From NCBI GenBank assembly GCA_038874135.1, contig JAVZCZ010000001.1, positions 512,001 to 576,000 of the forward strand: a DNA stretch of 64,000 nucleotides, given 5' to 3'. Below, in pieces: positions 31,324-61,416 of the stretch. The DNA comes from Candidatus Woesearchaeota archaeon (GTDB taxonomy: Archaea; Nanobdellota; Nanobdellia; Woesearchaeales; 0-14-0-80-44-23). The notes beneath the pieces were generated by a model. It was not told the DNA's origin. It worked only from the letters and a program-made list of their open reading frames with translations, and made no database searches. A program made the translations under genes and the position numbers. Positions within the stretch are counted from its first letter, which is position 1; the number at the start of each line of letters is the position of its first letter.

Positions 31324-31425
31324 TTTAGTTTTCCTCCTGCAGGTGCTTAGAAGCACTGCATTTTTTTAACCTCAGCAGTTTCACCCTTTCGGGCAGCTTC
31401 CGAGCTACTGCGCTCGGGCTTTGGT
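31324..31425 (-). promoter_or_regulatory. Structured 5' leader of rps2 (candidate r-protein autoregulatory RNA)
   Basis: Three GC-rich hairpins and a possible pseudoknot between TTTATAAA (31452-31459) and the SD. Confidence 0.6.
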
Positions 31426-31476
31426 ATTATTCTTAGGGGTTTAACAAGCTGTTTATAAATTTAACTCAGAAAAAAA

Positions 31477-33064: not shown

Positions 33065-33517
33065 TTAGTTGTTTTTTACCAAATTATTTATTTCCTCTTC
33101 ACTAATCTTGCCTACTGTGTCAAACATGCTTCTAAGCCCCTTAGCAAGGGACTTCTCATCTGAGATTAGTGTGTGAAGGTGAGGCGCCACGCTCCATTTA
33201 ATGTCCTCTGCATTCGGATTTATGAATATGAGTTTTAACCTAGGTATATCCTTCAAGGATTGCCACGCCTGAATAACTGCTTTAAGATTTGCTTCAGTAT
33301 TAAAGAACAGCGCAGTTATATCTGAATCTTGCAACCTCTGAATTTGGGATGGCTCGGGCTCAATTAAGAATGTACACTTCTTACCGCCAGCATAAAAGAC
33401 TTCTAAGCCGGATTCAGTATCACTAATTTTTAATATCTTCTTCTCTAAAGAGTCCCTGCTATACAGGTAGTTTTTAAGCCAGTTTTTCAGCCATTCAAAT
33501 CTTTCCTTGTCCTGCAT
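33065..33517 (-). CDS. Hypothetical protein
   Basis: 150-aa ORF filling the gap between metallophosphoesterase and elp3. Confidence 0.7.
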   Translation of the reverse strand: MQDKERFEWLKNWLKNYLYSRDSLEKKILKISDTESGLEVFYAGGKKCTFLIEPEPSQIQRLQDSDITALFFNTEANLKAVIQAWQSLKDIPRLKLIFINPNAEDIKWSVAPHLHTLISDEKSLAKGLRSMFDTVGKISEEEINNLVKNN

Positions 33518-37824: not shown

Positions 37825-37846
37825 GCATTTTGAGAATAACACTCTT

Positions 37847-38114
37847 GAAGGCTAGGCCGGGGAATTAGTCCTTCCCTGTAACTGTAAACGGACTCATGAC
37901 AGGGCCGAATGCGGGGGGGCGGGGCATGCTCGGCATGCTGGCCTTGGGCTTTACTGTGAGGCCTTGTCCGTCAGGACTACTGGTTTGGGAATCGTGTCAG
38001 GTCCGGAAGGAAGCAGCACTAACCATTCCAGATGGTGCTTGGCGGGAAGCAGGGTTGAGGATGGCTCAAGAAAAACCAGCGTGTTCCTGCATTCTTCAAC
38101 CTCCCGATGCCTTC
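37847..38114 (+). ncRNA. ffs: Archaeal SRP (7S) RNA
   Basis: Terminal helix GAAGGC/GCCTTC; Alu domain with UGUAA and loop-loop AGTCC/GGACT; helix 8 GTGTCAGGTCCGGAAGGAAGCAGCAC. Confidence 0.95.
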
Positions 38115-38126
38115 ACCTCTTTTAAC

Positions 38127-42053: not shown

Positions 42054-42184
42054 TGCGGGGAGTAGGATTTGAACCCACGTAGGCACTAAGCCAGCAGATG
42101 GCTCACGCGGAATAGCTCATCGGCAGCTGCCTCGCCACTCAAGCAACTTGAGTCTGCCCCGTTTGGCCACTCCGGCATCCCCGC
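42054..42184 (-). tRNA. tRNA-Leu(CAA) with 47-nt intron at 37/38 (42100-42146)
   Basis: GCGGGGA/TCCCCGC acceptor stem; GCAGA/TCTGC anticodon stem; long variable arm; TTCAAAT; BHB with central helix CTCA/TGAG. Confidence 0.95.
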
Positions 42185-44392: not shown

Positions 44393-45259
44393 ATGAAATT
44401 CATGAACCTGCCTGAAGAATATTCTGGTCCAAATTCCAGATTTTTAATAGTTCCAATACCCTATGAGGGAAGGGTAAGCTGGATGTCCGGAGCATCAAGG
44501 GCACCTGCTAATATAATAAGGGCCTCTGCAAATCTGGAGTATTATGACGAAGAGTTTGAAGTAGAACCATTCCTGAAGGGAATTGCTACTTTAAAGAGTA
44601 TAACGCCCGGCAGGGTTTCTGAGGAAGCTGCTGTAAGAAGTATTGAAAGGAAAGTTGCCCAACTTAAAATAGAAGGTTCATTTCCAGTATTTCTTGGAGG
44701 GGATCACTCTGTTACAATAGGCGTTGTAAAAGGTCTTGAAAAGAAGTTTTTTGATTTTGGTTTTATAAGTATTGATGCACATTCTGACCTTAGAGAATCC
44801 TGGAACAAGTCGCGGTTTAATCACGCCTGCACTTCTAGAAGGGTTTTAGAAAATCATCCTGTGCTGATTGTGGGGCTACGCTCGCAGGATTCTGAAGAGG
44901 CGGAGATTATAAGAGAAGGGAGAGCTTTAGCTATAAAAAGGTATGAATATTCACCTCAGTTTCTAAAGAGTGCCCTAGCTAAATTACCTCAGAGCGTGTT
45001 TCTTTCAATAGATGTTGACGCTTTTGATCCTTCGCTGGTAAGATATACTGGAACCCCTGAACCCGGAGGATTCTTCTGGAATGAGCTTATAGAAATTCTA
45101 AAGCTAATATTTGAACATAAAAAGGTAATCGCTGCAGACGTAGTAGAATTTGCTCCTGGGAAAGATGAAAAAATTACCAATGCTGAATCATTTACAATTG
45201 CAAAACTCATTTACAAGATTTTTGCCTTGAAAATGCTAAGTGAAAAATGGAAAGCTTAA
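44393..45259 (+). CDS. speB: Agmatinase (ureohydrolase)
   Basis: GGDHS, DAHSD, HAC, SIDVDAFDP, TGTPEPGG, VVE. Confidence 0.92.
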   Translation: MKFMNLPEEYSGPNSRFLIVPIPYEGRVSWMSGASRAPANIIRASANLEYYDEEFEVEPFLKGIATLKSITPGRVSEEAAVRSIERKVAQLKIEGSFPVFLGGDHSVTIGVVKGLEKKFFDFGFISIDAHSDLRESWNKSRFNHACTSRRVLENHPVLIVGLRSQDSEEAEIIREGRALAIKRYEYSPQFLKSALAKLPQSVFLSIDVDAFDPSLVRYTGTPEPGGFFWNELIEILKLIFEHKKVIAADVVEFAPGKDEKITNAESFTIAKLIYKIFALKMLSEKWKA

Positions 45260-46266
45260 CCTTGCTGCACTGATTTTAAACGTTGAATTTCCAATTTGGG
45301 ATCTGGATCTGGATTAACATTTAGAGCACGAAATTCAATTCTGTCAAATCCGGGATTCTTTGAAACTCTTCCCTCTAAAAGAACTTGCATTCCTAATAAT
45401 GAATTTTTCAGCGCTGAGAGCTGTCCATCATTACTTTTAATGCTGAGAACCTCGTTCTCACCAAGTTTGAGAAGTTGAAGAACCTGCTCTTTAAAGCACA
45501 CCACTCTAACCGTGCCCGTGCCGTCATCTACAAAGAAATTCAAGACAAAGCTATAGCTTGGCGTTGAGGTTGGCCCGTGCACTTCACATATAAACCCTTC
45601 AGATCCCTGTTTCAATCTTCTTCTGCACTCTGGACAGGTCTCGTAAAAGTGAAGGTCAAAGACCTGAGTTATTGTCCCTAAAATTTGAACATAATCTCCT
45701 TCTTTAAGATCTGAAATCTGCCTGCGCGGCGTTGTTGGGATATTTGTTGGCTTCTTAGCCAGCTCGGGAACTCTCTCCTCTGGCGGGTTTAGTATGAGTT
45801 TTGAGCGGGAGTTGAGGTGAAGTTCCAGCTGGCCATTTCTCTCCCTAACATATCCAGACTTTATCTTTACGATGTCATTTTCTTTAAGATTTGCTGCAAG
45901 TTCTGCCTGCTCGTTCCAGAGCACCACTCTAATAGAGCCTGTTTCGTCAGAAAGTACGAAAGAGGAGACCTTTCCTGAAGAGTTCTGGGTTGAAAACTCT
46001 GTAGGTGGAAAGACCTTTTCTACGCGCCCAACAGTTTCAACATCTCTCATTCCCGAGAGTATGTTCTTGATTTGCACTCTGCCAGCTACTGAGTCAAACA
46101 GCTTTATGTTCAGCTCATGCGCGAGTATGTATGCTGCGCCCTCCCTGCTTATCATTCCTGAGAGTAGTTTTATCTTTTCATCCATCCTTTTTAGTATTTC
46201 ATCTTCAGAAAGGCCGCTCTTCTCCTTTATTCTGGCAATCACTTCTTCCATTGGTATTTTAAGCAT
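45256..46266 (-). CDS. rpa: Replication protein A (two OB folds plus Zn finger)
   Basis: DETGSIRVVLW, CPEC..C..H, DDGTGTVRV. Confidence 0.88.
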   Translation of the reverse strand: MLKIPMEEVIARIKEKSGLSEDEILKRMDEKIKLLSGMISREGAAYILAHELNIKLFDSVAGRVQIKNILSGMRDVETVGRVEKVFPPTEFSTQNSSGKVSSFVLSDETGSIRVVLWNEQAELAANLKENDIVKIKSGYVRERNGQLELHLNSRSKLILNPPEERVPELAKKPTNIPTTPRRQISDLKEGDYVQILGTITQVFDLHFYETCPECRRRLKQGSEGFICEVHGPTSTPSYSFVLNFFVDDGTGTVRVVCFKEQVLQLLKLGENEVLSIKSNDGQLSALKNSLLGMQVLLEGRVSKNPGFDRIEFRALNVNPDPDPKLEIQRLKSVQQG

Positions 46267-46309: not shown

Positions 46310-46315
46310 AAAAAA
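46310..46315 (-). terminator. Oligo-T terminator of the sRNA
   Basis: T6 immediately after the terminal stem. Confidence 0.6.
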
Positions 46316-46407
46316 CGAGTTTTGCATGCGCTCCCCAGTTACTACCGTTCTTCATTGCCGAACGGCTCAGCGGGTGTTCACTCGGTCACTGCGCATTCTG
46401 CACTCGC
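46315..46407 (-). ncRNA. Stand-alone C/D-type guide sRNA enclosed by a perfect BHB motif
   Basis: Own TATA (46430-46437) and T6 terminator; D' CUGA, C' AUGAAGA; terminal K-turn AGU-GACC/GGGA; BHB CGAG-UGCA-GAA-UGCGC / GCGCA-UGCA-AAA-CUCG. Confidence 0.8.
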
Positions 46408-46450
46408 AAGAATTGTGGTGTGTATTTTTAATATAAAAAAATATGCCTGA

Positions 46451-54584: not shown

Positions 54585-54709
54585 GCCGAGGTCGCATAGC
54601 CTGGTATTGCGAAGGATTGCTAATCCTTTGCCCGAAAGGGTCCAAGGGTTCAAAGCACTTTCATAAATGAGGCTTTTGCCTTATGTGTGTGAAAGTCCCT
54701 TCCTCGGCG
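54585..54709 (+). tRNA. tRNA-Ser(GCT) with 41-nt intron in the T-loop (59/60; 54655-54695)
   Basis: GCCGAGG/CCTCGGC acceptor stem, G73; AAGGA-TTGCTAA-TCCTT anticodon arm; long variable arm; BHB TTCA/TGAA whose splicing restores TTCAAAT. Confidence 0.93.
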
Positions 54710-60815: not shown

Positions 60816-60849
60816 ACCTTTTTAAACTTGGTGAGAAATATAGGTGTTT

Positions 60850-61416
60850 ATGAGCAGAAAAAATATTTCAGAACAGACTGAGAAGCAAGGCAGGAAAATA
60901 AAGGTTGTTTATGCTAAAGAACAGATAATTAGTGAAAATTCTGATTATGCTAGAGAGCTCTGCAATTCGGGAAGCTACGGAGTACTTCTTGAGGATGGCA
61001 GGGTGCAATTCTCTGCGTTTGAGACGCTGTACCTTATGGAAAAAGGGAAGGTTGAGCTTATAGATTTTAGGGGTAGAACGCTTTCTAAAGAGGAGCTCAT
61101 AAAGAAAGCTAGCAGGAGTGATAAAGAGTTCCTGGCAAGATATGCCATCTTTAAGGATTTAAGAACTAGGGGTTATGTGGTTAAGACAGCTTTAAAGTTC
61201 GGAGCTGACTTCAGAGTCTATGACAGGGGTGTTAAGCCTGGAGAGGACCATGCTAAATGGATAGTGTACGCTGTGCACGAATCTGGAGGACTCACCTGGC
61301 ACGACTTCGCAGCTAAGAATAGAGTTGCTCACTCAACCAAGAAAAAGCTTCTCATCGGAATATTAGATGACGAGGGCGACATAACATATTACGAGATAAG
61401 ATGGATAAGGCCTTAG
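60850..61416 (+). CDS. endA: tRNA-intron splicing endonuclease (single catalytic unit)
   Basis: DLR.RGY.VKT.LKFGADFRVY, EDHA, RVAHSTKK (Tyr-His-Lys triad). Confidence 0.95.
   Translation: MSRKNISEQTEKQGRKIKVVYAKEQIISENSDYARELCNSGSYGVLLEDGRVQFSAFETLYLMEKGKVELIDFRGRTLSKEELIKKASRSDKEFLARYAIFKDLRTRGYVVKTALKFGADFRVYDRGVKPGEDHAKWIVYAVHESGGLTWHDFAAKNRVAHSTKKKLLIGILDDEGDITYYEIRWIRP

Follow-up and report, generated by a model that had tools for sequence, protein, structure and literature searches.

The window analysed here comprises 64,000 nt from the genome of a Candidatus Woesearchaeota archaeon (GCA_038874135.1, contig JAVZCZ010000001.1, positions 512,001 to 576,000), which is assembled as a single contig of 910 kb, is 99% complete and was detected in hot-spring metagenomes. 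On its minus strand, at 46310-46407, it carries a free-standing box C/D small RNA (sRNA) with two guides, the ends of which form a canonical bulge-helix-bulge (BHB) structure; the splicing endonuclease EndA and the ligase RtcB probably release a 76-nt circular guide RNA from this host-less precursor. EndA cuts canonical BHBs regardless of the host RNA, after which RtcB ligates the products and closes them into circles; C/D guides direct methylation to the nucleotide opposite the fifth guide base upstream of box D or D' (N+5 rule). In the proposed pathway, transcription from the element's own TATA box would yield a precursor of about 98 nt, EndA would cut both bulges, and RtcB would join the ends, giving the circle and a throw-away exon hairpin of about 20 nt. 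The circle would then bind L7Ae, Nop5 and fibrillarin and guide 2'-O-methylation of 23S rRNA at U2552 via its D' guide, in place of the protein enzyme RlmE, and probably at U2438 via its D guide. It is very probable that the BHB is cut in the cell, and likely that the circle is the main product.

All elements named in the original prediction, i.e. the TATA box, the hBHBh' ends, the D' box, the hairpin, the C' box and the T6 run, were recovered at their predicted minus-strand positions. The terminal boxes, which it had left unnamed, are a C-like GUGACCG and a D-like GGGA; both are non-consensus, yet they retain the tandem GA pairs and standard kink-turn (K-turn) geometry, and consensus boxes are found in their place in homologues. 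As in archaeal box C/D sRNAs generally, two K-turns can form, with spacers of about 10-14 nt, and as in archaeal BHB introns, the ends combine a 4-bp central helix, a 3-nt bulge 3' of the helix on each strand and flanking helices. Folding at 75 °C gave the BHB as the predicted minimum. The sRNA scores below the gathering threshold of every curated C/D family in Rfam. Two DNA runs of one study, one of them the possible source, cover the element with zero differences. Applying the TATA spacing of about 29 nt from homologues with a plain terminal stem, transcription would start near G46407, where the outer helix begins; a scan for sigma-70 promoters and hairpin terminators is not applicable to archaea.

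A perfect 4+4+4 BHB-like pattern occurs 46 times in the 0.91-Mb genome, so that the motif alone proves little and the case rests on the relatives. Homologues were collected by BLAST (about 18 clear cases among 60 relatives), by a pattern scan (119 stretches, including two bacterial chance matches) and with a covariance model of the core only, which matched in 128 of 151 genomes sampled evenly across the order Woesearchaeales, and also in some families of other orders. Among 120 homologues of the even sample, 21 carry a strict 3-4-3 BHB, compared to a mean of 0.63 (maximum 3) in shuffles; bulges of 1, 2, 4 and 5 nt were found in 3, 0, 1 and 3 cases, and the mirror orientation in 1. A second, partly overlapping sample obtained with the pattern gave 15 BHBs in 124 sequences against 0.13 in shuffles, with other bulge sizes at 0-1. 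All three helices vary yet stay paired, with at least 8 different sequence pairs in the central helix and a lineage-specific outer helix, and the 3' bulge reads A-N-A in 16/16 cases of the pattern sample and in most cases overall. In two genomes of the same family, the BHB register is identical to the one described here, with compensatory changes. What gives the BHB weight here is its placement: it encloses a C/D sRNA that is itself conserved, at a frequency far above shuffles. The expectation that it would be conserved in homologues held for these 21, where it is strict and backed by compensatory changes, and failed for the roughly 80% that have a plain stem; given this majority, the BHB is, judged from the sequences, an optional maturation add-on in the family. 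On a tree of RpoA', strict BHB versus plain stem requires 11 changes, scattered over the tree; being a single marker with weak deep branches, it cannot tell gain from loss. The BHB is absent from 10 other or paralogous guides examined and from the second free-standing guide of this genome; on the latter ground, we rejected it as a genome-wide trait.

Two further features separate the BHB genes from the plain ones. The distance from a TATA-like box to the C box is 30-39 nt in 87/103 plain homologues, but in 0/15 BHB homologues; in 9 of the latter 15 it amounts to 40-52 nt, placing the box about 10 nt farther upstream, which is the shift that transcription of the 5' arm of the BHB requires. A terminal D box without GA was found in 6/21 BHB and 3/9 partial-BHB members at several positions of the tree, compared to 1/90 plain members, as expected if closure reduces the need for end protection by the terminal K-turn. 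Both the promoter shift and the D-box decay recur in several clades, within which kin are not independent. It is somewhat more likely than not that, time and again in Woesearchaeales, the main ribosomal guide came to be enclosed, or stayed enclosed, in a splice site without a host, with tRNA splicing acting as a dedicated, Rnl-independent circularisation route and closure permitting the terminal K-turn to decay. In two BHB or partial-BHB members (L366 in G187, L371 in G026), the terminal C and D boxes have apparently been lost altogether and replaced by plain pairing; these are candidates for circle-dependent guides.

The D' guide forms 10 contiguous Watson-Crick pairs with the A-loop of the genome's own 23S rRNA, which is the best duplex in either rRNA and reaches the at least 9-10 bp beside D or D' expected of a guide. 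Its fifth base is opposite the U located 101 nt after A2451, i.e. U2552, as originally predicted. This position is a known target of archaeal C/D guides, predicted in five species (Dennis et al., 2015, PMC4644070). Guide and A-loop co-vary in L073, L102 and family f138. The gene for RlmE (RrmJ) was found in 9/20 genomes without the sRNA versus 0/60 with it; the nine represent 7 separate changes on the tree, and fibrillarin genes persist in 5/9, in one case interrupted by an internal stop. In this genome RlmE is absent, with only weak matches to PF01728. We infer from the pairing and the gene content that the D' guide directs 2'-O-methylation of U2552, at which RNA guide and protein enzyme would thus be cleanly exchanged. 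The atypical G2551 noted in the original prediction is real and present in all A-loops read from relatives, whereas a G occupies the position, facing the base adjacent to D', for which a C had been predicted. In helix 92 of the 23S rRNA (genome C1:128331-128345, L001), G2551 faces A2557 in place of the C-G pair of E. coli, and the same holds for the readable 23S rRNAs of relatives. Fibrillarin matches with one internal stop (TAG and TGA, respectively) are located at G049:C9:66706-67344 and G060:C5:3494-4147; G049 carries RlmE, and its C/D system may be decaying.

For the D guide, 23S 2606-2616 had been proposed as the target, with the site at about 2610; the genome reads GUUGGUUUAAUAUC there and does not match. 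The best duplex is instead formed with helix 74 at 2435-2444, comprising 7+3 pairs with one guide base bulged and N+5 on U2438. In homologues the bulge is shifted or absent, giving up to 10-11 straight pairs, and in two genomes of another order (G323, G274) the guide reads GUAGCU and the 23S rRNA AGCUAC, where GUAACU faces AGUUAC here. The conservation of GUAACU, although built into the pattern-scan set, also holds in the BLAST and covariance-model matches. Helix 74 is thus the likely target; the bulged duplex may be methylated or may serve only as an anchor of the ribonucleoprotein (RNP). Methylation of U2438 would be a new prediction, as the literature searched yielded no report of a guide to, or methylation of, this position. 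Other candidate targets were rejected: a G-U-rich duplex at 23S ~2130 is weaker, and weaker still with the family-consensus guide; no 16S duplex, including helices 38/39 and C1402, is better than the 23S sites; and among tRNAs only a G-U-rich run in tRNA-Cys was found. Second C/D sRNAs of several Woesearchaeales (L359, L368, L372, L374, L376, L377, L375, L381) share the D guide to helix 74 and have another D' guide, mostly to helix 69; in L381, both guides are directed at helix 74. This suggests duplication with replacement of D', or a D guide acting as a shared anchor.

The proteins on which the original prediction depends are encoded in the genome: fibrillarin, Nop5 and L7Ae for the C/D RNP, and EndA and RtcB for processing of the BHB. 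The closest single-domain relative of EndA with a solved structure is the catalytic subunit of N. equitans. Canonical BHBs also flank introns in the T-loop of tRNAs of this genome, so its EndA is not tied to position 37/38. The ATP-dependent RNA ligase Rnl (TIGR01209) was over the cut-off in 0/59 genomes, including this one, which sets the element apart from the Rnl-circularised guides of Thermococcales; a role of the BHB as substitute for a lost Rnl is non-discriminating, since Rnl is absent from BHB and plain genomes alike. The element is also host-less, as had been proposed: no tRNA was found at the 19 loci scanned, and when 15 BHB loci were spliced in silico, neither a tRNA nor a consistent open reading frame (ORF) resulted. 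We accordingly rejected a tRNA host in hidden or split form, which ARAGORN detected neither in the loci nor after their splicing, and an mRNA intron (no consistent ORF), as was the exon hairpin as an anticodon mimic, its loop sequence not being conserved. The 'exon' sequences are not conserved in general, and the arms retain no tRNA sequence. Since splicing restores no functional host RNA, be it tRNA, rRNA or mRNA, the element acts like an intron-encoded guide but fails as an intron.

Several points weigh against the proposed pathway. At 37 °C, the prediction favours, by 1.7 kcal/mol, a slipped fold that lacks the full BHB; the 5' bulge begins with G here and with A in most homologues; transcript, cut sites and junction are predicted from DNA sequence; and the Fisher P values of the comparisons are overstated, because kin genomes are non-independent. 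By the criteria of Dennis et al. (2015, PMC4644070), the bulged D duplex would be rejected. A second free-standing C/D sRNA of this genome (L252, genome C1:99890-99956, minus strand), which has consensus boxes and a D' guide to helix 69, has a long imperfect stem without a BHB; a pattern search for this second guide in BHB genomes had no match and is uninformative. As about 80% of the homologues do without a BHB, and Rnl is missing from the plain-stem genomes too, the circle is dispensable for guide function. These plain-stem homologues probably work as linear RNAs, and all of the comparative evidence shows selection for an EndA substrate and not for ligation, which would suit a guide that EndA trims solely to precise 5' and 3' ends, taking off leader and U-tail, and that stays mostly linear with its 5-bp stem. 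We consider this unlikely, however, because RtcB normally closes BHB introns into circles once they are excised in archaea (PMC9014305, PMC4731332), because the inner helix keeps the cut ends together, and because closure better explains the D-box decay in BHB carriers.

The patchy spread of the BHB, with partial or decayed forms, fits repeated loss, and some plain stems correspond to the inner and central helix of a BHB member minus the bulge (L149 vs. L053). Together with the long imperfect stem of the second guide, this could indicate that the BHB is left over from a tRNA or rRNA intron in which the guide once resided, or that it is simply a long stem with bulges that lends stability to the ends, in either case unprocessed in the cell. 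A preference for 3-nt bulges in a single orientation, for A-N-A in the 3' bulge and for compensation in all three helices would not be expected of such a passive structure; moreover, no tRNA sequence is left in the arms, and cleavage of any canonical BHB by EndA is established chemistry, making this explanation quite improbable. The BHB occurs on one guide family, and not on the 10 other or paralogous guides or the second guide, which would leave room for splicing as a means of control or turnover, in which the uncut precursor is active or cutting limits the guide level, or for the exon hairpin as the selected product. With unconserved exon sequences, and both cuts outside a C/D core that is left intact, this is very improbable.

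The individual parts of the proposed release of a circular guide are already known, namely an intron guide, BHB-mediated circularisation of a stand-alone RNA, and Rnl-made circles. A computational survey of 2015 by Berkemer et al. reportedly found many C/D sRNAs with BHB-like elements, using relaxed motifs in cultured model archaea and without evidence from covariation or promoters, and may partly anticipate our finding. The C/D sRNA within the pre-tRNA-Trp intron of the euryarchaea Haloferax volcanii and Pyrococcus/Thermococcus (summarised in PMC7714728, PMC3326292, PMC9014305) is likewise a dual guide, released there by EndA at a BHB and circularised via the RtcB pathway, but it has a tRNA host and targets Cm34 and Um39 of that tRNA, whereas the element described here has no host and targets in 23S rRNA. 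Thermoproteus has a permuted signal recognition particle (SRP) RNA (Plagens et al., 2015, PMC4731332), which is, like our element, a stand-alone non-coding gene with short leader and trailer forming a BHB; EndA cleavage was shown in vitro, and the mature RNA is circular with one exact junction (PMC4731332). That RNA is permuted and requires closure for its function, in contrast to the non-permuted C/D guide with its optional BHB. Free-standing C/D sRNAs are also known as circles from Pyrococcus/Thermococcus, Sulfolobus, M. kandleri and N. equitans (PMC9014305, PMC3326292, PMC3695527, PMC3491384), whereas the circle is a prediction for our element; those of Thermococcus are closed by the ATP-dependent Rnl with variable junctions, while here a canonical BHB is present and no Rnl was found. 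Known A-loop guides to U2552 (PMC4644070) share the target, with no BHB reported. According to a review of 2021, C/D termini are usually without canonical BHBs (PMC7994747), and we found no publication demonstrating that EndA and RtcB process a free-standing guide RNA in this way. Both the circularisation of such archaeal RNAs in the absence of Rnl and the purpose of the circle are regarded as open questions (PMC7994747, PMC9014305). In this family, one guide occurs naturally both with a BHB and without it, which gives matched pairs on which route and benefit are testable. If correct, the proposed release would add a class of EndA/RtcB substrates to tRNA, rRNA, cbf5 mRNA, one haloarchaeal 5' untranslated region and the Thermoproteus SRP RNA, and provide an archaeal parallel to small nucleolar RNAs released from non-coding host transcripts.

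Coordinates of the element and of neighbouring features are given in Table 1. The sRNA is intergenic, located between a gene of 145 aa (end 46451) and an RPA-like gene (start 46266).

Table 1. Features of the sRNA locus and related genes, in window coordinates.
Feature	Position	Strand	Basis or remark
TATA-like box	46430-46437	-	sequence; spacing taken from homologues with a plain stem
5' 'exon', 11 nt: outer arm, central-helix strand and first two bulge nt	46397-46407	-	
Outer arm strands, paired	46403-46407 with 46315-46319	-	sequence
Central helix strands UGCA, paired	46399-46402 with 46323-46326	-	sequence
5' 3-nt bulge GAA, predicted cut 46397/46396	46396-46398	-	cut rule from established BHB chemistry
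Predicted excised, circularised C/D guide RNA, 76 nt	46321-46396	-	in silico
Inner helix, canonical stem of terminal K-turn	46391-46395 with 46327-46331	-	sequence and homologues
C box variant GUGACCG, K-turn partner of D variant	46383-46389	-	consensus boxes here in homologues
D' guide, A46375 opposite U2552 (genome C1:128336)	46371-46381	-	10 bp to 23S A-loop
D' box CUGA	46367-46370	-	sequence
3-bp hairpin closing internal K-turn, variable in length and sequence among homologues	46357-46366	-	
C' box AUGAAGA	46349-46355	-	sequence
D guide, A46340 opposite U2438 (genome C1:128222)	46336-46348	-	7+3 bp, U46344 bulged
D box variant GGGA	46332-46335	-	consensus boxes here in homologues
3' bulge AAA (46320-46322) and central-helix strand (46323-46326), predicted cut 46321/46320	46320-46326	-	
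3' 'exon': outer arm and T6 terminator-like run (46310-46315)	46310-46320	-	
RPA-like OB-fold gene, downstream of sRNA	45256-46266	-	synteny with sRNA within this family only
EndA splicing endonuclease, 190 aa, single copy	60844-61416	+	catalytic Tyr/His/Lys positions kept

Further observations concern the sRNA family and its genomes. Judged by the titles of their records, isolates from cold seeps and soil are among the BHB carriers too. G001, of the same genus, has neither the sRNA nor an RPA orthologue, probably owing to an assembly gap. Locus L154 contains two family copies, and G040:C49, G055:C26 and G148:C14 each yield two model matches about 130-150 nt apart, which suggests tandem guide genes. 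Many records titled 'uncultured Methanosarcinales' carry this sRNA and group with Woesearchaeota on the RpoA' tree; these titles look wrong.

Among the other RNAs of the genome, two tRNA-Ser genes (window 54585-54709, plus strand, and genome C1:834718-834830) contain T-loop introns in canonical BHBs and were missed by ARAGORN, and a tRNA-Ala in the rRNA spacer apparently has two introns. The 47-nt intron of tRNA-Leu(CAA) (window 42054-42184, minus strand) contains a K-turn-like D'/C' module, and similar modules are found in the tRNA-Trp and tRNA-Met introns. An archaeal SRP RNA, matched by Rfam and not permuted, is located at window 37845-38116 (plus strand). A GC-rich intergenic island at window 31375-31450 has two hairpins (z -1.8) and no Rfam match, and another intergenic island, at genome C1:~33290-33400 (minus strand), contains an H/ACA-like hairpin with an ACA box and a K-loop.
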